64,000 nucleotides of DNA from Escherichia phage V18. Position numbers and translations under genes: made by a program. A model generated the notes under the pieces. It saw nothing but the letters and a program-made list of their open reading frames with translations. It did not search any database and had not been told where the DNA came from. Of this stretch, positions 1,164 through 57,403 are shown in pieces (the stretch's first letter is position 1; each line of letters opens with the position of its first letter). Where the stretch lies: the sequence record NC_041937.1, one strand, 5' to 3'.

Positions 1164-2963
1164 TCACCTCTGTCTGTCCAGCCACCAGTTCTGTAGTGAC
1201 ACTGTAGTGTAGCACAGTTCATTGGGTCCCCCTACAGTCCTGGCACTGGTACCACCACAAGCTATCGGTAGTGGTTCCCATTTGGCTTTCCGGTTGTTAT
1301 AAACACCCCATTCCAAACTGCCGTTACCGGATTCGTCCATCCCGCCATCCCAGATGACCATCTTGGCGGCTTTCTTAGATCCCCAGAAACCTCTTTCTGC
1401 TCCTGAACTGCGGATCCATTCTCCAAGTCCCCAGTTTGCCAGCTGACCGTTCAGATCACCAACCTGCATATATTTAGGACAATCTAAGACCCCATCCTCA
1501 CGGAAGCCTAAATATCTATGAGTTTCAGATCCTTTTGCGCCTTTGTGCAGGTGGATTGTCAACCAAGCCTTATTGTCGTTTCTTACCTCAGAGTAGATCC
1601 TATACCCATGCTCAAGGACACCGTCAGCGCTGTATTTGTCCCCGTTAACAATACCTGATGCTGACTTAACATCAGCAGAACTTTGAGACAGGTAAAGGTG
1701 CCCAAAGGTAGGGGAGTTTCTAGACCCGAGACCGATGTGTGCTCTAAAGGTATCATCGTTACGAGGTCTGACCATCGGCTGCCATGCAGTCCACTGATTT
1801 GTGTTGGCCTGGTAGGTTCTCAAATACCAAACATCTACGTTAGAGAATGGATAGTATTCCTGACGACAACCTGTACCGCCGTTAGCATTGTTCTGCCAAA
1901 CAATCAAGTGACCAGCACCAGAACCTGCAGGGTAACCATTTGCCTCAGTTGCATAGGCAGTCATCGGCTGGTAGTACACACCATCCTGATTACCAGTTAA
2001 GTTATTGATATTGAAATTTGGCTCAAGGGCTGCACGTTGCTTATAGAAAGCCCCCAAGTTAATGCGTGAACCTGCGGCATCCCTGGCACCTGTGCCGCCT
2101 TGCTCTATAGCAAGAGGTTGCCACGAAGCTGTTTGTTGGTTCCACATACCCCAACGGCCTGTTGCATCAAGCTGCAAGTACCCTGCTGTGTTTAAATCAT
2201 CTCCAGCACGGATAACTGTTCTTGTTGGGTTGTTTGCCTCTAGGCGTTTAAATTCATCACGAAGTGCTATTCTTTTTGTTGTTGCTACACCGTTGGTTAC
2301 TGCAATGGTATACATGGCTCCGGTGGTAGCGCCACGGAAAATACCATCAACAGTTGTAGTATCACGACGAGATACCACACCATTCAGAAATTTTTCACCA
2401 GCTGCTACAGAAGGGTAGTTGGTAGTTCTTCCCTCTTCAATAACTGCAGGGCCAACAAAGTTATCAAGGTGAATAACATCGCCTACAGTGTGCACTGTAC
2501 CAAAATCTACACGCTGTGCAAGGGCTTTAGCATCGTTAGCTGTCTGAACAGTAACATCCATTACATCCTGGACAGACTGCCCTTCGGCTGTCATAATCAT
2601 AGATGCGCCAATGGTAGATTCCAGCTCCTCCCTTAAGGACGGATCTGTATATACCATCCATGCAGCGTCAGTAATCCCACCATCGGAGTACGGTGAAGAT
2701 AGTGCAGGGACAGTGTGTGGAAATTCGCCTTTCCAACGCAGGTAGAGGTCTTCCTCTTCGAAGTAGGCAAAATCCATTGGGCCGTTTAACTTACCACCTT
2801 CCTTAAAGGAGATTACATGAGAAACAGTCCCATCCACATGGACAACATCGCCAATTTTTACACGACGAGTCAGGTCTGGTTGTTGAACAACCAGGTAATC
2901 ATCCTCTGTCACTGCGGTAGTGGCAGGAAGAGATTCAATTCTGACAACTTTAATATCAGCCAT
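1164..2963 (-). CDS. tail fibre protein
   Basis: 599 aa; N-terminus DDYLVVQQPDLTRRVKIGDVV shared with ORF 5598-6266; GGTGA(R) ... NLG fibre motifs (QGGTGARDAAGSRINLGA, ACGGTSAR). Confidence 0.7.
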   Translation of the reverse strand: MADIKVVRIESLPATTAVTEDDYLVVQQPDLTRRVKIGDVVHVDGTVSHVISFKEGGKLNGPMDFAYFEEEDLYLRWKGEFPHTVPALSSPYSDGGITDAAWMVYTDPSLREELESTIGASMIMTAEGQSVQDVMDVTVQTANDAKALAQRVDFGTVHTVGDVIHLDNFVGPAVIEEGRTTNYPSVAAGEKFLNGVVSRRDTTTVDGIFRGATTGAMYTIAVTNGVATTKRIALRDEFKRLEANNPTRTVIRAGDDLNTAGYLQLDATGRWGMWNQQTASWQPLAIEQGGTGARDAAGSRINLGAFYKQRAALEPNFNINNLTGNQDGVYYQPMTAYATEANGYPAGSGAGHLIVWQNNANGGTGCRQEYYPFSNVDVWYLRTYQANTNQWTAWQPMVRPRNDDTFRAHIGLGSRNSPTFGHLYLSQSSADVKSASGIVNGDKYSADGVLEHGYRIYSEVRNDNKAWLTIHLHKGAKGSETHRYLGFREDGVLDCPKYMQVGDLNGQLANWGLGEWIRSSGAERGFWGSKKAAKMVIWDGGMDESGNGSLEWGVYNNRKAKWEPLPIACGGTSARTVGGPNELCYTTVSLQNWWLDRQR

Positions 2964-2998
2964 TCTTTCTCCTGAAAGGGGGCAAACAGCCCCCTATG

Positions 2999-5596
2999 TT
3001 AAAGGTACAATCCACGGTATTGAGCATAAAGGCCTAGACCGCGAAGGATTTCGCCAGAGTGATAGCCAACCGGGTCAGAAACTGCCCAGCAGCCGTTTAA
3101 AATATTATCCCCATTAATGAAGTGGTGCTTTTGCAGTAGCTTCACACAGGCTTCCACAACAATATCTATTTGAGGTATTGTCTCTGAATACCCGCAAAGA
3201 CCTAGCCAGCAGCAACCTGCAAGCCATTCACCTACCACCCACATCCTGTCTCCTCTGTCCTGATAAGAATATCCCCCAGAGGTGTTAAAGTCTGTAGGCA
3301 GATTTCCTGAATGAGATGACTGGAATCTGTTGAGGAACCATGCCCATTTCTGGCAGAACAGGAATAGTCTTTCATCAACAGGTTCTTTATGTTTCTTGAG
3401 CTCATATATTGTGCGGCACGCAGCAACAAAAGATCTTGACTGGAGCTTAGAGTTATCTACCATCTCCCACCAACCAGTCAACCCTTCATTACCTCTTTGC
3501 CATACATAACGTGAGGCAACTGGACCCTCTGTCTTAAATGTATTATTATACCAGACTTGAGCGTCATACAGAAAGCCTATTGTATTTGACAATCTATGGC
3601 GATCTATGTTTTCTGCACCCATGCAGTAGACTGCTGGGTATTGCATGCCAGGGTAGGGCCAATTTGGCTTTTCCTCTAAGAGATAGTTTTCCTTATCTAT
3701 CATCTTTCCGGCAGGGAACACACCCGGTGTGTGCCTGTATGCACCTTGCTTGTAGTTTCTGACATAGCAATCTCCAACCTTAGCGGTTGATTCTGTCTTG
3801 CTTGCCATCCATACACTAAACCAGATTAGATAAGCATCCCTATCTGCAATATAGAATTGCGGCAGCGTGTTGACGCAATATAGATCAAACAAGCCATTAC
3901 CTATCTGCCTGTCGCTTAGGCTGAAATCTACAGAGGTGAGCCCCTTAGGATTAGCAAAGAAAGGTTTAATCTCTTCTTCGGTGTGGTGAGGTTGTGTCGG
4001 ATCTAGTTTGAAATCTCCTAGAGTAAGAGTTTCTGTTATCCATTGTCCATTAGTGGCATATAGATCAGCATACCATAACCACCTGTCTTTGTCAAGAAAT
4101 TTGACCCTTACCATCTCATCATCTGATCGATAAGTTACTGAGTTTAAAGAAACCTCTCTTCCAAAATTGAAAGTTACTTTACCTCTTGCTATATTACAAC
4201 GGGTGAAGTTGTCAGAGTGGTTGTAAATGTCGGTATCATACTGCATACTGACACTAGCGCCACCGCTCACGGCAATGTTTTCCTCTTTAGGTAAGAGATA
4301 CGGATTACCGTCTTTACCAACCACCTCTACAAAATCAGTAACCTTGGCAACTGTTTCTGTTACCTCTGCCCCTCCAAAAGGGACACCTATTCTGTACTGT
4401 TTTTTGTTATTGTTACCATCATTAAGGATGAAATGTGGTTGGAACAGAACCCCTTCTCCTCCGAAATTCATAACAATTTCAGCATCTCTGCCTATTTTGT
4501 ATGTAGTCCCTTTTTGGATTATTTCGCAAGGCTGGCGTGCGTTCATTCTAAAATTGATATATCCGTCACTATCCCTACTCATGACAGGTACTGTTCCTGC
4601 AACTAGACAAGTGCCATCTGTGAACGGGGCCTTAATCAACGTGGTCTTTCTGAACAGCTTGTCGTAGGCATTTATATCACTAAAATTAAGCAACTTATTG
4701 TAAGACTGCTTAAACGCGGTGTAATACTTTTCCTCACCTGTCAAGGTATAGAGTTGATAGCAAGCGTCACACCACATCTCTTCCCCGTCTAACTCTGTGG
4801 CTTGATTGTCTGCAACCACATTTATAGGATTTACAATTACAGGGGATCCAGCAGGTATCACCGATCCACCCTGCTCTTGTGGCAATCTCACACAGTAGGT
4901 CACCTTGTGGCTGCCTGTAACACCCTTATCCTGCAGTTGGATTGTGCCGAACTCTGCAGACGTATGACCACTATCGGCTATGCTACCGTTGGCCCAATAG
5001 CGGTTACCATCCCATGCTATATACCACTCAACCCACCAACTTAACCCGGATGTTGTCCAATCTGGGTTAGCATCTGTGCCACCGTAAACATCAGAGTCTA
5101 CAGTGTTTCTTCCTAATACACCGTTATATGCTTGAAATGCCTTGTCCAGGTATTCCCCCCATGTCGGAGATCCAGCTGGGATTTTTCCTCTACCATTGGT
5201 AAAAGATACCACCACATCTTTAAACCCACCATGTGATGGAACCCCATCTGTGGATAGAGGGTAGTGGGACAATCTTTGCATTTTACTTTCTACTGCATAT
5301 GCACCCAAAAGATGACTATTGTAAGCTTCCCAAGCATCTTTTGCCCTATCCAAGTAGAAATCGCTTTTCGATGCCCTGTATGCTTCAATGTACCCCAGAA
5401 TCAACACAGCTTGGGACTCATGCATTGCCCAATCATTATTTATCTTATTACCTGCCCACCCTGCAGCTATAAGACCATCAGGGTTTACTAGCTTATTTTG
5501 TGTGGGAGTGTTGGTAATACCTGTGTTGTTATCGAGGCACTTCCTGTGCCCCTCAATCATCTGAAATACGTTATCAATGTTGTGTTGAATACGCAT
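2999..5596 (-). CDS. putative tailspike / receptor-binding protein with possible polysaccharide-degrading domain
   Basis: 865 aa immediately downstream of a fibre-anchor ORF (stop and start 1 nt apart); N- and C-terminal regions look like alpha/alpha-barrel glycosidase folds; function unverified. Confidence 0.45.
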   Translation of the reverse strand: MRIQHNIDNVFQMIEGHRKCLDNNTGITNTPTQNKLVNPDGLIAAGWAGNKINNDWAMHESQAVLILGYIEAYRASKSDFYLDRAKDAWEAYNSHLLGAYAVESKMQRLSHYPLSTDGVPSHGGFKDVVVSFTNGRGKIPAGSPTWGEYLDKAFQAYNGVLGRNTVDSDVYGGTDANPDWTTSGLSWWVEWYIAWDGNRYWANGSIADSGHTSAEFGTIQLQDKGVTGSHKVTYCVRLPQEQGGSVIPAGSPVIVNPINVVADNQATELDGEEMWCDACYQLYTLTGEEKYYTAFKQSYNKLLNFSDINAYDKLFRKTTLIKAPFTDGTCLVAGTVPVMSRDSDGYINFRMNARQPCEIIQKGTTYKIGRDAEIVMNFGGEGVLFQPHFILNDGNNNKKQYRIGVPFGGAEVTETVAKVTDFVEVVGKDGNPYLLPKEENIAVSGGASVSMQYDTDIYNHSDNFTRCNIARGKVTFNFGREVSLNSVTYRSDDEMVRVKFLDKDRWLWYADLYATNGQWITETLTLGDFKLDPTQPHHTEEEIKPFFANPKGLTSVDFSLSDRQIGNGLFDLYCVNTLPQFYIADRDAYLIWFSVWMASKTESTAKVGDCYVRNYKQGAYRHTPGVFPAGKMIDKENYLLEEKPNWPYPGMQYPAVYCMGAENIDRHRLSNTIGFLYDAQVWYNNTFKTEGPVASRYVWQRGNEGLTGWWEMVDNSKLQSRSFVAACRTIYELKKHKEPVDERLFLFCQKWAWFLNRFQSSHSGNLPTDFNTSGGYSYQDRGDRMWVVGEWLAGCCWLGLCGYSETIPQIDIVVEACVKLLQKHHFINGDNILNGCWAVSDPVGYHSGEILRGLGLYAQYRGLYL

Positions 5597-7685: not shown

Positions 7686-8679
7686 ACCTCCTCAGTTTTG
7701 TCAACAACTCCACCCACTGTTTCCCCAAGGCCAAGCTCTGTAGTGTAATCACCGCCTTCTATGGTGCCCTTATGATGCACCGTGATCACCTTATAGAAGC
7801 CTGTATATTGCTTGCTTTTAAGATAAATAGTGGACTCTGGGAGGATAGCTCCGTTAAGGCATGTGGTTACAGTAAGACCGACATCCTCTCTCGGGTTTTT
7901 CTTTTTCTTACGTGTGCCACCTTTCGCAGCAGCTTTAGCTTTTCGTTTTTTAGCAGGCTCGGGGTTTTTAGGGTGGGAGATCCGTGCATCCCAGACTCTG
8001 CACTTATTTCAAACACAGAGTCCTTGAACCTTTTTCCAACCTTGGTCCAATACAAAGCCCCATCCTGAACGCTAAATGTGGAGTTGGTCAGTCTTGCAAA
8101 CCTGCGGAGGTTCTCTGCAGTGTTTCCAGAGAAAGCCATAGAGTATTGCAAAGTCTGGTTTCCAAAACCAACAACCCTACCTTTTGGCAAGTTCATATCC
8201 TTCAGTAGGTCATTAAGCACAGAGTTCAGAGGTGTGCCTTTCTGATAAGATCTTGTGCTTTGGCACTTAATGATGTTCTCAGTACCATCCCCGAAGATGA
8301 ACTTAGTTTTTCTGGTCGGACCTTCCCATCTGTCTTCAACAAACTCTACAGTTCCGGAGAATATCAACTGGTTCTCATCATCATAGCCAGCTTCAAACAT
8401 AACTGCAAGGGCATCAGCCTGATGCATATCCAGATAGTTAACTGTATCGTCAGACAGGTTGTAAACTGTCACATAACCTTTGTTTGGCTCTTTGGTATTG
8501 TCCTTTTGTATGTCAAACTCTATATTGGCGGCACCAGTGTCTGAGCTAACTTCATAAACTCCGGAATCACTCTCCCCTTTCTTTTCAACAGATTTTGGGA
8601 TATTGGTTTTTGATTTACCGCCATGCTCTACCGGACGACCAAACAATAATCGCCATGTTCTACGTCTGTACTCTGCCAT
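7686..8679 (-). CDS. putative baseplate/tail protein, apparent frame change near 7930-7990
   Basis: 270 aa ORF 7867-8679 ends in an implausible basic tail; another frame stays open to 7686 and encodes a Lys/Ala-rich linker plus C-terminal domain. Confidence 0.4.
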
Positions 8680-21873: not shown

Positions 21874-23429
21874 TTAGATAAAACGCTTGAACATAGAAGG
21901 TGATGAGATTGATGGAATCACACAAGGAAGTGCTACCTCCTCTTTCTCCAGGAAATTAATCGCAGAAGCTACACAGTCGGCCCAGTCGTCTTTTCTGTTA
22001 AATGTTGATCTTTCCCCGTTGAATTTTTCAAGTTCAGTCAGAAATGCTTCCAGAGTATCAGGATGGAAACTGGATTTTACAATCCTCACCATTCCTTGTT
22101 GGGCAAGATTGGCAAAAGGTGAGAACCTTGTCAGTTTAGATTTGTTGGAAGGCATTGGGTCTTCTTCAACCCTAAACCCTTCGGCAAGCAAGGATCTGGA
22201 GGAGGTTAAGAACTCACTCTTACCTGCCTGACCGGGGTCCACAGAGAATACGATTATACAATCATCACCATCAAACTGCGCCTGTTTCCTGATGATCACA
22301 TCTCGTTCACCAGCCTTTTTACAGAACTTGCCTTCCAGACCTGTGGAATACCTCCCGTCATCCACGTTCTCAGGACAATAATCCCCGGACAGGTAATAAA
22401 AGCCGTCGCTATCTTTACTTACCTTGACACTGGCGGTAAAGTCAGGAAATTTATTACCGGAAGTTCTCTCGGTTCCTGCTTTATCCCATGCCCTGCAAGA
22501 CACTGATCCAAGGGGTACTCTATCGGCATCACGAAGGAAAGATCTTTGAAAATAGTTTGCACCCTCAGGCTTTGCAAACCAGTTACCATGGAGAAGCTGA
22601 GCTTTTTCAAGCTCGGGCAGACCTTCAAGGAAAGCAAGGTATTCTGGGTTGTCTCTTAAGCAGACAGGATTATCGAAGATTGTTGCGCCTATAAACGAGA
22701 ATGACAACGGTCTCGGCTTGATCTCTACACCCAGTCCGTTAACCGTGGTGTATTTCTCTATCAACTCTTCTTTAGAGTCTCCCCAGATAAATTCACCGTC
22801 GCGTCGGATAAAATATCTTTTCTTACCGCATTTCTCCGGATCTGGATACCCTTCATCGTCCAACCACCACCTAACCAGTTTGGCAAGCATGTGTTCTGAA
22901 TCGGGGTTACAGCTGATAACCATTCTTGATGGATACTTTGACTGAGATCTCAGACGAGACATCAGATAGTCTATCTGCTCCCATTCGAACTGCGTGCCTC
23001 ATCGAAGCAAACCAAGCAAACCATGGTATACTCAAGCCCTTGATGGTTAAGCTTATCTTGTACATACTCCATGTGGCAGTATTTTACAACAGCTCCCTTT
23101 TTGCTTCTATCCCACTTGCCAGTGTTCGGATCAAACCGTGGAAAAATGAACTTATGATCCTTCTCTCTGAACTTTGGCTTAATGTTTTCAGGCAGATCAC
23201 TATAAATAGCTACTGCTTTAGGCCATAGTCCACCCTCACCTTCCAACTGTGGGGTTGTTCTTCGGAACATAACCACAGAGCTGTGGGGGTCATCAATAAT
23301 TTTAAGTGGCATCAATTGCAAGAGGAACGACTTGCCAGACCCTGCGGCACCGCCGATTACCAAAATATCTGCATCGTTTTCGAGGATCATCTTCTGCTTT
23401 TCAGAACACGGTCCGTAAATCTTAGACAT
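21874..23429 (-). CDS. terminase large subunit, split into two frames (ATPase ORF 22971-23429, nuclease ORF 21874-22962)
   Basis: Walker A GGAAGSGKS and Walker B CLVCFDEA in N-terminal ORF; other frame continues ...EWEQIDYLMSRLRSQSKYPSRMVISCNPD after a single frame change. Confidence 0.75.
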
Positions 23430-24770: not shown

Positions 24771-24867
24771 AAAAAGGTGCTAGGTGATGGAATCGAACCA
24801 CCTATGTATTCAACGACCAATAGATTTACAGTCTACACCGCTACCTCTACGGGATAACTCCCCAATT
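24771..24867 (-). tRNA. tRNA-like element with Tyr(GUA)-type anticodon arm; acceptor stem not resolved
   Basis: Anticodon arm GTAGA-CTGTAAA-TCTAT and T-arm GGTGG-TTCGATT-CCATC present, long variable region, but 5' and 3' ends do not pair; may be degenerate or mis-folded by me. Confidence 0.3.
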
Positions 24868-46318: not shown

Positions 46319-47407
46319 ATGGCTGTATTTAATGCTGAGAACACCGCTCATAAAACTGGTGACTATCCGCTGTTTTTAGGACAGCAAATGGGTATGTACG
46401 ACTCTATCAACAAAAAATATCCACAACTGTTTGAACTATACAAAAAACAAAAAGAACAAGATTGGGCAGAGGATGAAGTGGATTTGTCGCAATCTATTTC
46501 AGATTTTGTAACATGCTCAAAGTCAACTTATGACGTGATGGTACAGACCTTGATGTGGCAATGGGAGGCTGATAGCGTTGCGGCAAGATCGATCATCTGC
46601 CTCTTTTCACCGTTCATCACTAATAGTGAGCTTTTCACTCTATTGATGAAACAGTCGGAGATTGAAGTTCTTCACGCACTAACTTACTCAGAGATTGTTA
46701 GACAATGCCTCCCCAATGCCCGTGAGATTATAGAAGAGATTCAGGAAAACCAAAACGTTCTGAGCAGATCCGGTGTTATTGTCAAATACATGCAAGAGCT
46801 AGAGGTTATTGGTGCAAAATACCGACTGGATCCTTCTAGTGTTGAAGAAGATGTTGTGCGGAAATGCATTCTTAGAGCGCTTTTTGCACTTTTAGCTCTG
46901 GAAAGTATTGAGTTTATTGCAAGTTTTGCATGCACTTTCGCAGTAGCTGAACAGGGTATCTTTGTTCAGGTGGCGCAGCTTGTTCAAAAAATCATGCTTG
47001 ACGAAATGCTACATTCGAAAGGTGATTTTGCCATCATTGATATCTTGCTTAACGATCCCGCATGGGAGAAAAGCTTCCTGGAGATAAAAGGGGAGTTAAA
47101 AGAGATTCTTGATGAAGTACGAACCAAAGAGTACGGTTGGAGTGACTATATTTTCAGCGAAGGAAGAGCGATTATAGGTCTTAACTCACCGTTGCTTAAA
47201 GAATGGGTTGACTATAACTGCTCACCGATTTATGATTACTACGACATCGACAAAGACTTTGTGCCGCCAACAAAGGACCCGCTACCGTTTATGCAGGTGT
47301 GGATGAAACCTTCATTGCAACAGACGGCGAACCAAGAAATGTCGAACACTGACTACCGCGTCAACACAACTGTTAACGACGCTGAAGAAGAAATTTGGGA
47401 GTTTTAA
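46319..47407 (+). CDS. nrdB: ribonucleoside-diphosphate reductase beta subunit
   Basis: 362 aa helical protein immediately after nrdA terminator; size and position typical of NrdB. Confidence 0.8.
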   Translation: MAVFNAENTAHKTGDYPLFLGQQMGMYDSINKKYPQLFELYKKQKEQDWAEDEVDLSQSISDFVTCSKSTYDVMVQTLMWQWEADSVAARSIICLFSPFITNSELFTLLMKQSEIEVLHALTYSEIVRQCLPNAREIIEEIQENQNVLSRSGVIVKYMQELEVIGAKYRLDPSSVEEDVVRKCILRALFALLALESIEFIASFACTFAVAEQGIFVQVAQLVQKIMLDEMLHSKGDFAIIDILLNDPAWEKSFLEIKGELKEILDEVRTKEYGWSDYIFSEGRAIIGLNSPLLKEWVDYNCSPIYDYYDIDKDFVPPTKDPLPFMQVWMKPSLQQTANQEMSNTDYRVNTTVNDAEEEIWEF

Positions 47408-47410
47408 TAT

Positions 47411-47689
47411 ATGAGCTGCGAAAAATCTTTTTTCATCATCATTTACGGTAAGGATAACTGCCCACACTGTGTCAGAGCAAAAGAATTTGCAATCAGCAAA
47501 GGTCTGCCTTTTGTATATAAGACACTTGGCGATGGCTACACAAAAGAAGAGCTTATTGAGAAGTGTAGTCCAATTGTCCCCAGAACGTTGCCGCAGATCT
47601 TCTTAGAAAGCGATCTTGACAGTATCCATATAGGCGGTGCCGACGATTTCATCTCTTTTGTTAAGAATGGTTTTGGAGAGAAAAAGTGA
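47411..47689 (+). CDS. glutaredoxin/thioredoxin-like protein
   Basis: 92 aa; redox motif YGKDNCPHCVRAK (CPHC). Confidence 0.65.
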   Translation: MSCEKSFFIIIYGKDNCPHCVRAKEFAISKGLPFVYKTLGDGYTKEELIEKCSPIVPRTLPQIFLESDLDSIHIGGADDFISFVKNGFGEKK

Positions 47690-49808
47690 AAGTTGTAAAA
47701 CGGGACGGTAGAGAAGAGTTCTATAACGGAATTAAGGTGATCAAGGCGGCAGAGTCCGCCTTACTTGAGTCTGGACATACTGAAGAAGAAGCTTACCGGA
47801 TCGCCTGCGCGGTTAATGAAGTTGTTGCTAACAATCTACCAACCGACCAGTGCACGATCTCTGTAAAAAATATCCATATCCTTGTTGAAGATGCTCTTAT
47901 GGATATGGGTTTAAAATGTGCAGCCAGAGAATACATCCAGTATAGACAGACAAGAGATAATAACAGAGAGGCAGGTGGAAAACTGCTTGCAGATATTAGT
48001 GGCTTCTTGGATCGAACTTGTGATGAATTTACAAAAGAAAACGCAAATAAGCCCACTAATCATGTACACACTCATCGTGACCTGCTTGCAGGCATCCTTA
48101 GCAAACACCTTGCATCAACACAGATCCTGCCAGACCGTGTTTCAGAAGAGCACAATAAAGGCTTCATCCATGTGCATGATCTTGACTACTTGATCAGTCC
48201 GTTAACAAACTGTTGTTTGGTAAATTATCCAGATATGTTGGAAAACGGATTCAACATTGGCAACGCCCATGTCAGTAAGCCGAAGTCAATAGGGGTTGCA
48301 ACAACAATCCTTAGCCAAATCTCTAGTGCGGTAGCTAGTGCTCAATATGGTGGTCAGACTATGAGCCATATTGATCATTATCTGGCACAGTATGCTGAAG
48401 CGACCTATGAGAAGAACCTTAAATTTTGCCAGGAACATTGGTTGCCAGATGCTGAGACTGTTGCAATGCAAATGACAGATAAAGACGTGTTTGACAGCAT
48501 GCAGACGTTGCTTTATCAGATCAACACACTAACCTCGGTAAACGGTAACCCCTTTTATCACATTAAGTTTAGGTTTGGACACTTCGGTCTTTGGTAGAAT
48601 GATTACCAAAAACTACCTGAAAGTCCACAAAATGGGTCTTGGTGAAGAACGTATTACACCTGTGTTCCCTAAAGTGCTGTTCTTCCTAGAAGAGGGTGTC
48701 AACATGAACCCTGGGGATCCTAACTACGATTTGAAACGATTAGCTCTGGAATGCTGTGCAGAACGTATCTACCTGACTTCGTATCTGTACCACTAAATAG
48801 AAAAGTGACAGGCTCGACAGATGGCAAAGTAACGAGCATGGGATATGTAGAAGTTTCTTATCGAAATATAGCGACCCTGTAACAGGCGAGGAGAAATACC
48901 TTGGCAGATTTAACTTAGGCGTTGTTAGCCTTAACCTGCCAATGATTGCGGCAAAAGCTAAGACGGAAGGTGTTGATTTCTTTGCAGTTCTTGACGAATA
49001 CTTGGATCTTGCATACGAGGCTCACCTTGTAAGGGTTAATCGTCTAAAAGGAACAAAGGCGGGGCAGAACCCCATCATGTGGTGTGAAGGCGCTCTTGCT
49101 CGCCTGGATCCCGAAGAGAGTATTGATAAACTCTTCTATGACGGGTACGCTTCCATCAGTATTGGGTATATCGGTGTGTATGAAACCTGTCAGATTTTGG
49201 GTAGAGAAGGCGACAAGGCTTTAGCTCTTGGAATCCTTCAGCACATGAGAGATGCTTGTGAGCGATACAAGAAGGAAAGTAGACTAGCATTTAGCTTGTA
49301 CGGCACTCCTTCTGAGAGTCTATGCTATAAAGCTGCAACCTGTCTGGATCGTGAATATCCGGAAGTGTTGAAGCACGAGCATGAATATCTCACCAACAGT
49401 TTCCATCAGCCAGTATGGATAAATAGCTCTCCTTTTGATAAGTGGGAGTATGAGGAAGGTTTTGCTATGATCTCCTCTGGTGGCAACATCGGATACGTAG
49501 AGACACCTAACCTGAAAAACAACCTGGATGCTTTAGAGGCCCTTGTTGACTTCGGGTATAAACACATTATGTATTTTGGTATTAACCAACCTGTAGATAA
49601 ATGTCTCAAGTGTGGTTTCTCTGGTGAGTTCAGTGCAACAGCTAAAGGCTTTGTATGCCCAGAGTGTGGAAACCATGAAGAGGGAACGATCAGTGTAATT
49701 CGACGTGTGTCTGGATACCTTTCCAGTCCTAACTCCCGTCCTTACAATAAAGGTAAGCAAGCGGAAGTTATCGAGCGAGTTAAGCACTACGGAAGTTGTG
49801 GTTGCTGA
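47686..49808 (+). CDS. nrdD: anaerobic ribonucleoside-triphosphate reductase, interrupted by three frame changes
   Basis: N-terminal ATP-cone; segments resembling E. coli NrdD (ERIYPDF...KVTGS, CRSFL, RFNLGVVSLNLPMIA, glycyl-radical RVSGYL, CxxC zinc ribbon) lie in frames 1, 2, 1 and 0. Confidence 0.7.
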
Positions 49809-49871: not shown

Positions 49872-49985
49872 ATGTCATCAGGTATTTATAAAATTTGCAA
49901 GTGTGGTTGTCGTTGCAATCTTCGTTGGTGCAAGGCACTAGACGATTTTATTTGGCATTGCCCTAAATGTGATGCGGAGTATCTA
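49872..49985 (+). CDS. small Cys-rich zinc-ribbon protein (37 aa)
   Basis: MSSGIYKICKCGCRCNLRWCKALDDFIWHCPKCDAEYL; AGGAGG RBS; stop overlaps nrdG start. Confidence 0.3.
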
Positions 49986-50458
49986 TGAACATTGTCGGAT
50001 ACACAGAAATATCTTACACCGAAGGGCCAGGTATTAGAACTGCCTTGTGGGTATCTGGGTGCCCACACGCTTGCCCTGGTTGCTTTAATCAGGCATTTTG
50101 GTCAAAAGATAAGGGGAGGGAGTTCACTGAAGAAGATTTGCAAAAAATCTTGTCAGATTTAGATAACCTGTCTGTGTGCGGTATCTCTCTGCTGGGTGGA
50201 GAACCCTTAGCATACTATAATGAGCCAGATATTATTAGCCTGATGGAGAAAATTAAGGAAAAATTTGGTGACAAGAAAACTATTCTTGTATATACTGGGT
50301 TCACATTTGACCATATCTCTAGTGATGTTCTTAAACTGGCTGATATCATCATTGACGGTAAGTATGTAAAAGATTTACCAACCAAGAAACCGTTCCGAGG
50401 CAGCGATAACCAAAGAATGTTTAAAAAAGTAGCAGGCGGTTGGGTTCAGGTAGACTAG
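49985..50458 (+). CDS. nrdG: anaerobic ribonucleotide reductase activating protein (radical SAM)
   Basis: Cys cluster GCPHACPGC near N-terminus; 157 aa; adjacent to nrdD. Confidence 0.75.
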   Translation: MNIVGYTEISYTEGPGIRTALWVSGCPHACPGCFNQAFWSKDKGREFTEEDLQKILSDLDNLSVCGISLLGGEPLAYYNEPDIISLMEKIKEKFGDKKTILVYTGFTFDHISSDVLKLADIIIDGKYVKDLPTKKPFRGSDNQRMFKKVAGGWVQVD

Positions 50459-55142: not shown

Positions 55143-55238
55143 CAGGTATGCTTCTGATTAACTGGGAAGACCTCTATGGGCCTTTATGGGAAAAGAGCAT
55201 GTATTTAAAATGGTGCGTTAATTTAGGGAGGCCTTCCA

Positions 55239-55358
55239 GTGTTTCAAGCCATGTTTATTGAGATGCTATCTGGGGTATTGTTACTGGTAGCCATCTTAGG
55301 TGGTGCAGTTCTGATGTATAACTATCTTGAAAAAGGAGACAGCAATGGTAAAAAATAA
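55239..55358 (+). CDS. small membrane peptide (39 aa)
   Basis: GTG start after GGGAGG RBS; single transmembrane helix MLSGVLLLVAILGGAVLMY. Confidence 0.25.
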   Translation: MFQAMFIEMLSGVLLLVAILGGAVLMYNYLEKGDSNGKK

Positions 55359-55530
55359 ATCTTTAGAGCAGGCTGAAAACCTTCTCCACGAGCTGGTAAA
55401 GGAGTGGAAAGTTGAATACTCAGATTTTAATGCACGAGAGGGTGAAGATTATTGGCCTACGGAGCGCTCAGAGGGCGAATGGTATCAAGATTTTATAGAG
55501 TGGTTATATCAGACGTGCGATGAGGGGTGA
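55327..55530 (+). CDS. hypothetical small acidic protein
   Basis: 67 aa ORF. Confidence 0.35.
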   Translation: MKKETAMVKNKSLEQAENLLHELVKEWKVEYSDFNAREGEDYWPTERSEGEWYQDFIEWLYQTCDEG

Positions 55531-55991
55531 CGATGTTTGTTAAATATGTAAAAACGTGCCTCAACAGTCTTGGCAGAGAGCATTGGTACACCTTGCTTGA
55601 AAAAGGGGAAATTTTAACAAAATCTGGAAAGATAACTTTTATACATAGTAAAGGTAAAGACCCGTCACGACTTGTTATAGATGATTACGTTACAGGTGTG
55701 ACGTTCGAGGTCTCTGTGGAGAGGTTAATACGCAGAGCTGGCGGCCCTTATGACCGAAGAGAGTATGTTTTCGATTCCGTTACAGAGATGGGGGAGCATC
55801 CGTCTTTAATGTTCAGGATGGTAATCAGAGATATGAGGTCATCTATAGATAGGATTGTAAAGGACATTAAGGAACCTTTTAGAGTAAAAGTTAAGAAGTT
55901 TTTCGATTCTAAGATTAACATACTCGCCGTTGCACTAGGTGTAGTTCAACTTCTGTTAATTTTGCACTATTTTGAACTACTATTTAAGTAG
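55527..55991 (+). CDS. hypothetical protein with C-terminal hydrophobic segment
   Basis: 154 aa ORF; C-terminal ILAVALGVVQLLLILHYF. Confidence 0.4.
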   Translation: MTMFVKYVKTCLNSLGREHWYTLLEKGEILTKSGKITFIHSKGKDPSRLVIDDYVTGVTFEVSVERLIRRAGGPYDRREYVFDSVTEMGEHPSLMFRMVIRDMRSSIDRIVKDIKEPFRVKVKKFFDSKINILAVALGVVQLLLILHYFELLFK

Positions 55992-56053
55992 TAGTTGAGA
56001 TATGGCACAAAGGATGTGCCATAGTGAAATAAACTAAGAAAGAGGTAGAGAGA

Positions 56054-56401
56054 ATGCCAAAGATTAAAACGTTATTACTGTGGGTAACTGTTTTAGCTTT
56101 TATAGGGTACTGGACTTGGGAAACTGAATTAAAAGATATAGGATATACCAGTCTTGAGAGCAAGGCGTGCATTGGCATAACCGATGCGTTCAGGCAAAAT
56201 GCTATGGATCACGAATGTGTTGATGCAGATATAGATGAGAAACTGTCTAAGGACAAAGATTTTTACCATGGGCATGCTTTACTTGATAGTGGTGACACTG
56301 TAGAGTTCTGGTCGTGGTTTCGTGAAGATGGAACAATAAAAACAGCAGTAAAGATCTCTAACAAAGAGTTAATGCTGTTGCAGCAAAAGGAGGCTCAATG
56401 A
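56054..56401 (+). CDS. hypothetical protein with N-terminal signal/transmembrane segment
   Basis: 115 aa; N-terminus LLLWVTVLAFIGYWTW. Confidence 0.4.
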   Translation: MPKIKTLLLWVTVLAFIGYWTWETELKDIGYTSLESKACIGITDAFRQNAMDHECVDADIDEKLSKDKDFYHGHALLDSGDTVEFWSWFREDGTIKTAVKISNKELMLLQQKEAQ

Positions 56402-56685
56402 TCTGGATATCCTATGCTGATGGCACCATGCTGTATACTGCAGGTACCAGATATGAAGTTCAGGAGAACGATAAAAAATTTATCGTAAAAACATTTGACA
56501 AGGACGACAACCTTTTGCTAGAATTGACTTACAAGGTTGGAGAGGTATCCAATATCCAATTGGATTGTGGTCATAAAGATAACCCACTCAAAAAACCTGG
56601 AATAGGCAAGGCTTCAGAAGAACGTTTGTCTCGTATTGCAGAAAGCGTTTCTACACAAAAATCTAAGAAGGGGACTAGAAAATGA
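56398..56685 (+). CDS. hypothetical protein
   Basis: 95 aa ORF coupled to upstream gene. Confidence 0.4.
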   Translation: MIWISYADGTMLYTAGTRYEVQENDKKFIVKTFDKDDNLLLELTYKVGEVSNIQLDCGHKDNPLKKPGIGKASEERLSRIAESVSTQKSKKGTRK

Positions 56686-56750
56686 AAAACTTACGTTTTA
56701 ACACTGGCGCAATGGAAGAAGCAATATTCTAAACCAGGCGGGAGGGTTTT

Positions 56751-56936
56751 ATGAAGCACTATTGCCTGTCTGGTAGAATGGGTACAGATTGTGATTGGGT
56801 TTTCTTAAAACTTGTCAGCATTCGAGAGTTCATCCCAGAGGAAGAGCAAGAAAGCGAGCTGATGTCATGGATCAACCATTACGGTAACACTTTTCGGCAT
56901 GTTAAGGTAGAAGAGTTGCCAAGCGAGGCTGATTGA
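56751..56936 (+). CDS. hypothetical small protein
   Basis: 61 aa ORF. Confidence 0.35.
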   Translation: MKHYCLSGRMGTDCDWVFLKLVSIREFIPEEEQESELMSWINHYGNTFRHVKVEELPSEAD

Positions 56937-56938
56937 CT

Positions 56939-57028
56939 ATGATTGCATCAATATTAACGTTTATGGGTGGCGTGGCATTCGGATTCATTGTTTGCCTGTT
57001 TATAGTGATTATGTCTATGCGAGGCTGA
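56939..57028 (+). CDS. small membrane peptide (29 aa)
   Basis: MIASILTFMGGVAFGFIVCLFIVIMSMRG; coupled between flanking ORFs. Confidence 0.25.
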   Translation: MIASILTFMGGVAFGFIVCLFIVIMSMRG

Positions 57029-57031
57029 ATT

Positions 57032-57403
57032 ATGAAACTTTTTGAGTGGTTTAAAAAGTTTAAATATAAAGCTGTAGCCATCGTGCCGTGGTCAATTCAG
57101 TGGGTTGATGAAGGTGGTCTACCAATACCTGGTGACAAAGATACTGGGTACTGGATTATGATGGAGAACGGGTTTGGAAAGCGAAAGTATACGTGCACAA
57201 ACTCTACTCGATCTGCCACTAACTGGTCTAAATTCTACTGGGGAGCCAACGAGTGGGGAAGATACGCCACCAAATCAATGGCACTTATTGGTATAGCAGA
57301 GTACATTGCAGCCAGAGATAGGGTTGGAGACACTTATTACTATACTGCGGACGATATTCGTAACAGTGTTTACGTCCCACAACCACCTGATGGAGACCGT
57401 TGA
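57032..57403 (+). CDS. hypothetical protein
   Basis: 123 aa ORF. Confidence 0.4.
   Translation: MKLFEWFKKFKYKAVAIVPWSIQWVDEGGLPIPGDKDTGYWIMMENGFGKRKYTCTNSTRSATNWSKFYWGANEWGRYATKSMALIGIAEYIAARDRVGDTYYYTADDIRNSVYVPQPPDGDR

Follow-up and report, generated by a model that had tools for sequence, protein, structure and literature searches.

The question raised by this locus is whether an anaerobic ribonucleotide reductase gene that can be read only by changing frame three times is decaying, carries the traces of introns, or is intact in the phage and damaged in its record. The window, i.e. the whole 64-kb stretch of DNA that was analysed, belongs to the genome of a Vequintavirus (rV5-like E. coli myovirus), and both its nrd region and the remainder are 96-99% identical to relatives.

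One nrdD gene in four frame segments

The broken gene, nrdD, lies in a neighbourhood of ribonucleotide reductase functions with the following features:

43964-46279: nrdA
46319-47407: nrdB
47411-47689: glutaredoxin
47686..49808, plus strand: nrdD, large subunit of the class III anaerobic ribonucleotide reductase, in four frame segments; 97% identity to the 2124-nt rV5-like nrdD
49872-49988: ORF of 38 aa, rich in Cys
49985..50458, plus strand: nrdG (activase), open and of full length with 157 aa (ORF listing, Pfam)

The downstream nrdG is thus intact, as the original prediction had stated. Compared with five Vequintavirus relatives, NrdG has a single private change, P62L; the residue of FV3 at this position is Glu.

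According to the ORF listing and a three-frame translation, the coding of NrdD passes through frames 1, 2, 1 and 0 (numbered as position mod 3), and alignment and translation agree with the three frame changes that had been predicted in this order. The length of the gene is 2123 nt in the window versus 2124 nt in intron-less relatives. Its segments are:

47686..48546, plus strand: segment A, frame 1; ATP-cone and NRDD profile 1-166; last residue Gly287 (GGT); ORF open until the stop at 48597
48547..48771, plus strand: segment B, frame 2; NRDD profile 170-237; ORF 48575-48796
48772..48842, plus strand: segment C, frame 1; ...PDFVSVPLNRKVTGSTDGKVTSMG; ORF 48751-48882; below scorable length for Pfam
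48846..49808, plus strand: segment D, frame 0; NRDD profile 264-562, Zn-ribbon cysteines and glycyl-radical motif; ORF 48942-49808

Across these segments the matches to PF13597 (NRDD), namely 1-166, 170-237 and 264-562, are consecutive parts of one profile. An ATP-cone (PF03477, E=5e-14) is found at the start of NrdD and a glycyl-radical domain (PF01228, E=2e-23) at its C-terminal end, where the Zn-ribbon motifs CLKCG and CPECG (residues 640-662) and the glycyl-radical motif RVSGY (residues 674-678, nt 49704-49718) can be recognised. Cys388 (TGT, 48846-48848) is aligned with Cys290 of T4 NrdD, which we take to be the active-site cysteine of the catalytic finger loop. The gene as written accordingly possesses the domains and catalytic residues of its class and lacks a single continuous frame.

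Base-level alignment to the intact nrdD of rV5_ev168 and of seven other relatives, which had been proposed as a means of placing the indels, resolves the frame changes into three lesions:

between 48546 and 48547, plus strand: lesion 1, CA (start of the Gln288 codon) missing, from alignment to relatives
48772..48773, plus strand: lesion 2, one base missing in Tyr-Pro-Asp, CC versus CCC or TCC
48843..48845, plus strand: lesion 3, ATA replacing T (net +2), between the Gly387 and Cys388 codons

At lesion 1 the window has GGT/AACCCC, with GGTAACCCC across the junction, where GGT CAA ACC CC would be expected. At lesion 2 it reads TACCTGAC where the relatives read TAC or TAT followed by CCT GAC; the C that had been reported as lacking from Tyr-Pro-Asp is indeed missing at 48772-48773, and the additional base is present in seven of seven relatives. 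The string across the junction of lesion 3 is GGGATATGT. This third break had been described as a single-base discrepancy at 48841-48848, which has to be corrected to ATA for T, net +2, a frame effect also obtainable from a -1 change. Together the lesions amount to a net -1 nt and are spread over 298 bp. The original prediction was right in placing them within about 300 bp and began too far downstream, lesion 1 lying 14 nt upstream of its start.

Three minimal repairs produce an uninterrupted NrdD ORF of 707 aa. The repaired gene differs from that of rV5_ev168 at 57 nucleotides but at just five amino acids, and three of these five differences represent a haplotype also present in other phages. 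Such a pattern of substitution indicates strong purifying selection on nrdD and a gene without any sign of decay, and the proposal of a decaying anaerobic ribonucleotide reductase gene is abandoned because of it. On the same comparison the three breaks appear as those of one well-conserved gene cut by indels, a chance pattern being excluded. Relaxed constraint and lesions shared by relatives, the marks by which a decaying pseudogene would be recognised, were not found; among about 117 related phage genomes there is no case in which any of the three lesions is shared.

We give hardly any credence to the idea that the broken gene is still decoded, be it through a programmed frameshift or bypass, or in the form of an enzyme made of several pieces. 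A split and active ribonucleotide reductase exists in the NrdA of Aeromonas phage Aeh1, as cited in PMC7344957; decoding of the present gene, however, would require three shifts of differing sign, all of them indispensable. Frame 0 has no start codon upstream of Cys388 and its first ATG is at 48942, which leaves Cys388 in no translatable piece, and the relatives are all in frame at the positions of the lesions, which are absent from them; on reading of the junctions, no recoding signal conserved in relatives was seen.

Intron sites and exon patches

No intron was found in the nrdD of the window, either by an Rfam search of the window or in the length of the gene, and the intron sequences of relatives have no copy anywhere in the 64 kb; the prediction that no intron-like insert is present therefore holds. 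The contrast with the T4 nrdD intron that had been drawn from it stands only in part: the window is intron-less, but a link to introns was wrongly excluded, since two introns of sister phages have their exon junctions at exactly the bases where lesions 1 and 3 lie. Site 1 is situated after Gly287 (GGT/CAA) and site 2 at ATGGGT/TGTAGAAG, between Gly387 and Cys388; the in-frame junctions without introns are GGTCAAACC at site 1 and GGTTGT at site 2. Site 1 harbours an ORF-less element of 257 nt in CM1, nom, AlexBoehm and 241Ecol014PP, and a 797-nt form with an HNH gene in slur16 and, by alignment, apparently also in phita32 and FV3. At site 2, an element with an HNH gene is present in phita32 (762 nt measured) and 241Ecol014PP.

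In comparison with Rfam RF00028 (Intron_gpI), the site-1 insert of CM1 scores 29.3 bits (E=1e-5, full length) and intron 2 of phita32 35.3 bits (E=3e-7, group I core), both scores lying below the gathering score of 50, so that the elements are recovered at an E-value threshold alone and the introns of relatives are missed by Rfam at the gathering threshold. Inspection by eye shows in both elements a terminal G and a P1 helix whose last pair, at the proposed 5' splice site, is U.G; the P1 pairings, also read by eye, are AAACGGU/GCCGUUU at site 1 and AUGGGU/GCUCAU at site 2. Exon and guide of intron 1 covary (AAACGGU-GCCGUUU in the short form, CAACGGU-GCCGUUG in the HNH form), and the exon of the window at site 1 is the partner of the short-form guide. 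The elements in the relatives are predicted group I introns, the spliced exons of which would restore the frame.

The nrdD backbone of the window is ev168/slur16-like, with about 1% divergence, and the bases adjoining both sites depart from this backbone in two patches:

48489..48587, plus strand: patch 1, flanks of site 1, a co-conversion-type tract including the P1 exon strand AAACGGT; matches short-intron carriers
48834..48880, plus strand: patch 2, flanks of site 2; no difference from intron-2 carriers, 34% difference from non-carriers

Patch 1 shows no difference from CM1 in the 58 nt before and the 41 nt after site 1 (0/58 and 0/41), versus 11/58 and 8/41 from the intron-less ev168, and its divergence from intron-less alleles is 19%. 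Similarly, the 35 nt after site 2 have 0/35 differences from phita32 and 241Ecol014PP and 12/35 from all others. Patches of this sort are the product of co-conversion in intron homing (PMC2988022). Fourteen phage records contain the site-1 haplotype; in 13 of them it is split by a gap of about 257 nt, while the 14th matches one half alone. An uninterrupted haplotype of site 1 or site 2 was found in none of 50,697 phage records. Within the phage collection the window is the sole sequence with the patches and without the introns, and this state, with junctions off by -2 and +2 nt, is absent from every database record searched.

Searches for a second copy of the junctions had a similar outcome. 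IMG/VR contains neither junction string in a Vequintavirus context. In GTDB genomes and JGI metagenomes, junction 1 had zero matches and junction 2 no Vequintavirus copy, its matches being chance 18-19-mers in sequences otherwise dissimilar to the window. When the NrdD fragments of 303, 288 and 73 aa and NrdG were looked up as exact sequences, nothing was returned, and there was no match in complete E. coli genomes. PLSDB contains one Vequintavirus that is filed as a plasmid; it is 95% identical and has intron 1.

A third intron site is hit in the large terminase gene, which in rV5 has introns (Kropinski et al. 2013, PMC3606486):

22997..23013, minus strand: large terminase lesion, one C of CCC lost together with a tandem duplication of 9 nt (net +8), at the site of intron B, the second terminase intron of rV5

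This lesion is private and frame-breaking and would be lethal if real; apart from it, the region has 100% identity with FV3 across 563 nt. The footprint of a transposon target site was considered as a possible source of the 9-nt duplication. The case supports the tie between intron sites and lesions, and a dropped intron would be no obvious fit here, the flanks being of the intron-less FV3 type.

One explanation for such a tie would be that an intron-less phage was cut at the nrdD and terminase homing sites by HNH endonucleases from intron-bearing phages in the same infection, and that it escaped because the ends were rejoined with errors, which altered the target sites. Private lesions are present at three of the four known intron sites in the window, where about 38 lesions per 64 kb give, by our own estimate, a chance of about 1% per site that one lies within +/-10 nt, and the corresponding introns of relatives harbour HNH endonuclease genes. 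Nevertheless we regard scars of this origin as very improbable. A phage with a frame-shifted large terminase would not survive, the +2 at site 2 does not have the form of a fill-in duplication, and prior homing, not escape from it, is needed for the exon patches. Moreover, template-independent end joining is, to our knowledge, no major route in infected E. coli.

Damage across the window and the origin of the lesions

An error-prone stretch of the assembly had been the other proposal for nrdD. Error as such is supported; its confinement to about 300 bp is not, as the damage is window-wide. The indels of the whole window were compared with JeffSchatz, FV3 and rV5, and neither FV3 nor rV5, taken as reference, is collinear with the whole window. 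Versus JeffSchatz there are 26 isolated indels of a length not divisible by three, the majority of them losses of a single nt from runs of 2-6 G or C, and those that were checked are absent from all of the three to seven relatives compared. ORF mapping flagged 23 of 81 conserved ORFs (at least 90 aa) as disrupted, about 17 of them through frame-shifting length changes. Frame breaks were found by tblastn in the large terminase (aa 142), the tape measure (aa 279) and the baseplate hub (near aa 238); the tblastn match of the scaffold protein is confined to the first 109 of 325 residues, that of the decoration protein covers 39 of 129 residues, and the capsid protein is short by about 35-60 residues.

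In addition to these breaks, about ten segments of 60-815 nt that are present in every relative examined are absent from the window. Within 55180-57222 the deficits are about 815, 144 and 213 nt, and five segments of about 83-367 nt are missing from the capsid module, all listed relatives having them; every listed relative is longer by about 1.1 kb in the capsid region and by about 1.2 kb at 55-57 kb. Where segments are missing, the junctions are often blurred, a few neighbouring bases being mismatched, and there are no N runs within the 64-kb window. Random dropout at low coverage was considered as a source of the gaps and rejected because, by our own estimate, a Poisson gap model does not account for how many segments are missing and how they cluster.

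A lytic phage with a genome of this kind could not propagate, and the record itself is defective, because indispensable genes are broken and the rest is too well conserved for a relic. Private lesions throughout the window, with a bias to short runs and including genes that cannot be lost, are what an artefact would produce. Since the terminase, tape measure, hub, scaffold and capsid genes are equally broken, the private indels of the window are not credible as biology. Lesion 2 is an ordinary background error of the same type as the other single-base deletions, because about 26 such indels per 64 kb predict about 0.9 per 2.1-kb gene. Lesions 1 and 3 are different in kind from this background, neither having the character of a homopolymer error.

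The reading that we prefer, with a probability of roughly 0.8, is that the frame changes are defects of the record and that the real phage has both introns, which were dropped imprecisely when the sequence was built. The nrdD of the real phage is most likely intact and probably contains introns, and the true gene would probably be functional after RNA splicing. Following Gly287 it would possess a short ORF-less intron, and ahead of Cys388 one that is T4-nrdD-like and includes an HNH gene; both may have been lost imprecisely (-2 and +2 nt) in assembly, in scaffolding on an intron-less reference, or in editing; the same poor process may also have dropped the other segments and lost single bases. 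The technical origin of the lesions is inferred.

Several simple routes to the observed junctions were tried and rejected. Starting from the known intron alleles, one deletion suffices for site 1, where the intron and CA would have been removed, but without microhomology; at site 2 it fails, as GGG-ATA-TGT requires an additional change. Soft-clipping of intron-bearing reads on an intron-less reference predicts an in-frame GGGCAAACC at site 1, which is not observed (compared by hand). Fill-in or chew-back of endonuclease cuts with a 2-nt stagger does not account for the +2, which is not a duplication.

A biological counterpart to dropped introns would be a real and very recent pseudogene, in which both introns were lost by imprecise deletion of DNA (-2 and +2) and a further nucleotide was deleted. 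Class III ribonucleotide reductase, and with it nrdD, is dispensable in aerobic propagation. Exon patches of the intron type without the introns imply that introns were formerly present, imprecise deletion leaves scars such as those observed, and gene function is restored by precise intron deletion only (PMC2988022). We nonetheless consider a pseudogene unlikely: three independent inactivating hits would have occurred without excess amino-acid change, the lesions are private in a record with impossible breaks in essential structural and packaging genes, and site 2 is no simple deletion of any known intron allele. Taken by itself, the proposition that the nrdD sequence is correct and documents how a single dispensable gene lost two different group I introns, naturally and imprecisely, at the DNA level is in our view quite improbable.

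The biological weight of the broken nrdD is slight, the gene being most likely intact in the real phage. For curation, frameshifts and split or missing genes of this record (nrdD, phoH, terminase, tape measure, capsid module) are to be presumed technical, and the scars at intron sites together with the co-conversion-type patches predict two nrdD introns that are unseen in the record. Were the lesions true, on the other hand, they would represent a dispensable phage gene from which introns were lost imprecisely, caught before further decay. They would show directly the purging of phage introns from a host gene that is not under selection, with co-conversion patches and 2-nt scars remaining.

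Comparison with known introns and with assembly errors

The group I intron of T4 nrdD (sunY) resides in the same host gene, has 1033 nt and encodes the GIY-YIG enzyme I-TevII. Its position, the Tyr codon of AYE-Y-EVN, corresponds to Tyr277 of the window, which precedes site 1 by 10 codons and site 2 by about 110. In two core blocks the Vequintavirus intron at site 2 has about 79% identity with that of T4, and the guide GCUCAU is common to both, pairing with AUGAGU in T4 and with AUGGGU in Vequintavirus. It is unlike the T4 intron in its site and in having an HNH instead of a GIY-YIG gene.

Errors of draft phage assemblies resemble the damage in the window: private losses of 1 nt concentrated in short G/C runs, essential genes that are broken, and absent segments whose junctions are fuzzy. 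Lesions 1 and 3 depart from this pattern in their tie to intron sites, neither being a homopolymer error. The terminase introns of rV5, from the same genus, are likewise HNH-associated group I introns in a conserved gene, and the window has its terminase lesion at their site B; its flanks, in contrast, are of the intron-less FV3 type, and the lesion consists of a -1 change and a 9-nt duplication.

The closest parallel is provided by the nrdD introns of Vequintavirus itself (FV3, slur16, CM1, nom, AlexBoehm, 241Ecol014PP and phita32), where GenBank has a split or joined nrdD and an HNH homing endonuclease. Unlike these carriers, the window lacks the introns and has junctions that are off by -2 and +2 nt; it shares with them the same gene, the same two positions, and identical flanking exon haplotypes.

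Lesions and missing segments along the window

The large terminase gene of the window is frame-shifted by a change of CCC to CC together with a 9-nt tandem duplication (AAGCAAACC x2), the latter absent from every relative. This lesion occupies the exact site of the rV5 terminase intron B, and apart from it the window and FV3 are 100% identical across 563 nt. Private 1-nt deletions or small clusters, i.e. changes absent from the relatives compared, break eight further ORFs, and several segments are missing altogether.

Lesions in the window

21874-23429, minus strand: large terminase gene, frame-shifted within 22997-23013
7910-7971: baseplate hub, private 1-nt deletion or small cluster
11560: tape measure, likewise
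15502; 17907: two structural ORFs, private 1-nt deletions or small clusters
29598: RNA ligase, private 1-nt deletion or small cluster
34608: putative homing endonuclease, likewise
39684-39690: N6-adenine methyltransferase, likewise
51252: phoH, likewise
18767, 19231, 19320, 19361, 19394: missing segments of ~186, 354, 367, 83 and 116 nt, capsid, decoration and scaffold genes
55180, 56705, 57222: missing segments of ~815, 144 and 213 nt, private to the window

The five segments of the capsid module are present in all listed relatives; the islands kept between them measure just 34-94 nt each, and some of the junctions show clustered mismatches. The losses at 55180, 56705 and 57222 affect small hypothetical genes as well as one gene that putatively encodes a glycosidase, and they likewise concern sequence that all listed relatives possess.

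The tRNA cluster is ~400 nt shorter in the window than in JeffSchatz, rV5 and FV3, and because the junction (24784-24817) falls inside a 34-nt repeat common to two tRNA genes, recombination or assembly collapse is suggested. An 8-nt tandem duplication relative to JeffSchatz (AATGACAC x2, 40580-40587) was also observed where two small genes meet.

Among public records, about 19 unannotated GenBank entries named 'Campylobacter phage' (MG0656xx) and a single PLSDB 'plasmid' from E. coli (CP057073.1, 137.6 kb) are Vequintavirus genomes, and their labels are therefore probably wrong.

The nrdD-nrdG interval and NrdG

49872-49988: 38-aa Cys-rich ORF with two CxxC-like pairs, between nrdD and nrdG

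The end of this ORF overlaps the start of nrdG (ATGA). It is annotated as a hypothetical protein in relatives, and a Pfam search with it gave no match. NrdG itself carries a Pro62Leu replacement (codon 62, window position 50169) that is private in comparison with five Vequintavirus relatives, residue 62 being Glu in FV3; the exact NrdG sequence of the window was absent from a large protein collection.

The nrdD introns of relatives and of T4

At intron site 1, after Gly287, alignment of five Vequintavirus relatives (L002-L006) revealed a compensatory change in P1, the helix pairing the 5' exon end with the intron guide sequence. Short ORF-less introns have the guide GCCGUUU, which pairs with exon AAACGGU, and HNH-bearing introns have GCCGUUG, which pairs with CAACGGU. 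The 5' exon haplotype is of the intron-less type in HNH-bearing alleles and diverged in ORF-less ones.

About 2958-3719 in phita32 (L005): nrdD site-2 intron

This intron and the one in T4 nrdD are relatives: they share ~79% identity (two core blocks) and the guide sequence GCUCAU. The enclosed ORF is HNH at site 2 and GIY-YIG in T4. The Vequintavirus insertion lies ~110 codons downstream of the T4 position and adjoins the catalytic Cys, and its exon (AUGGGU) resembles that of the T4 site (AUGAGU); its origin looks like transposition of an intron onto a look-alike site.
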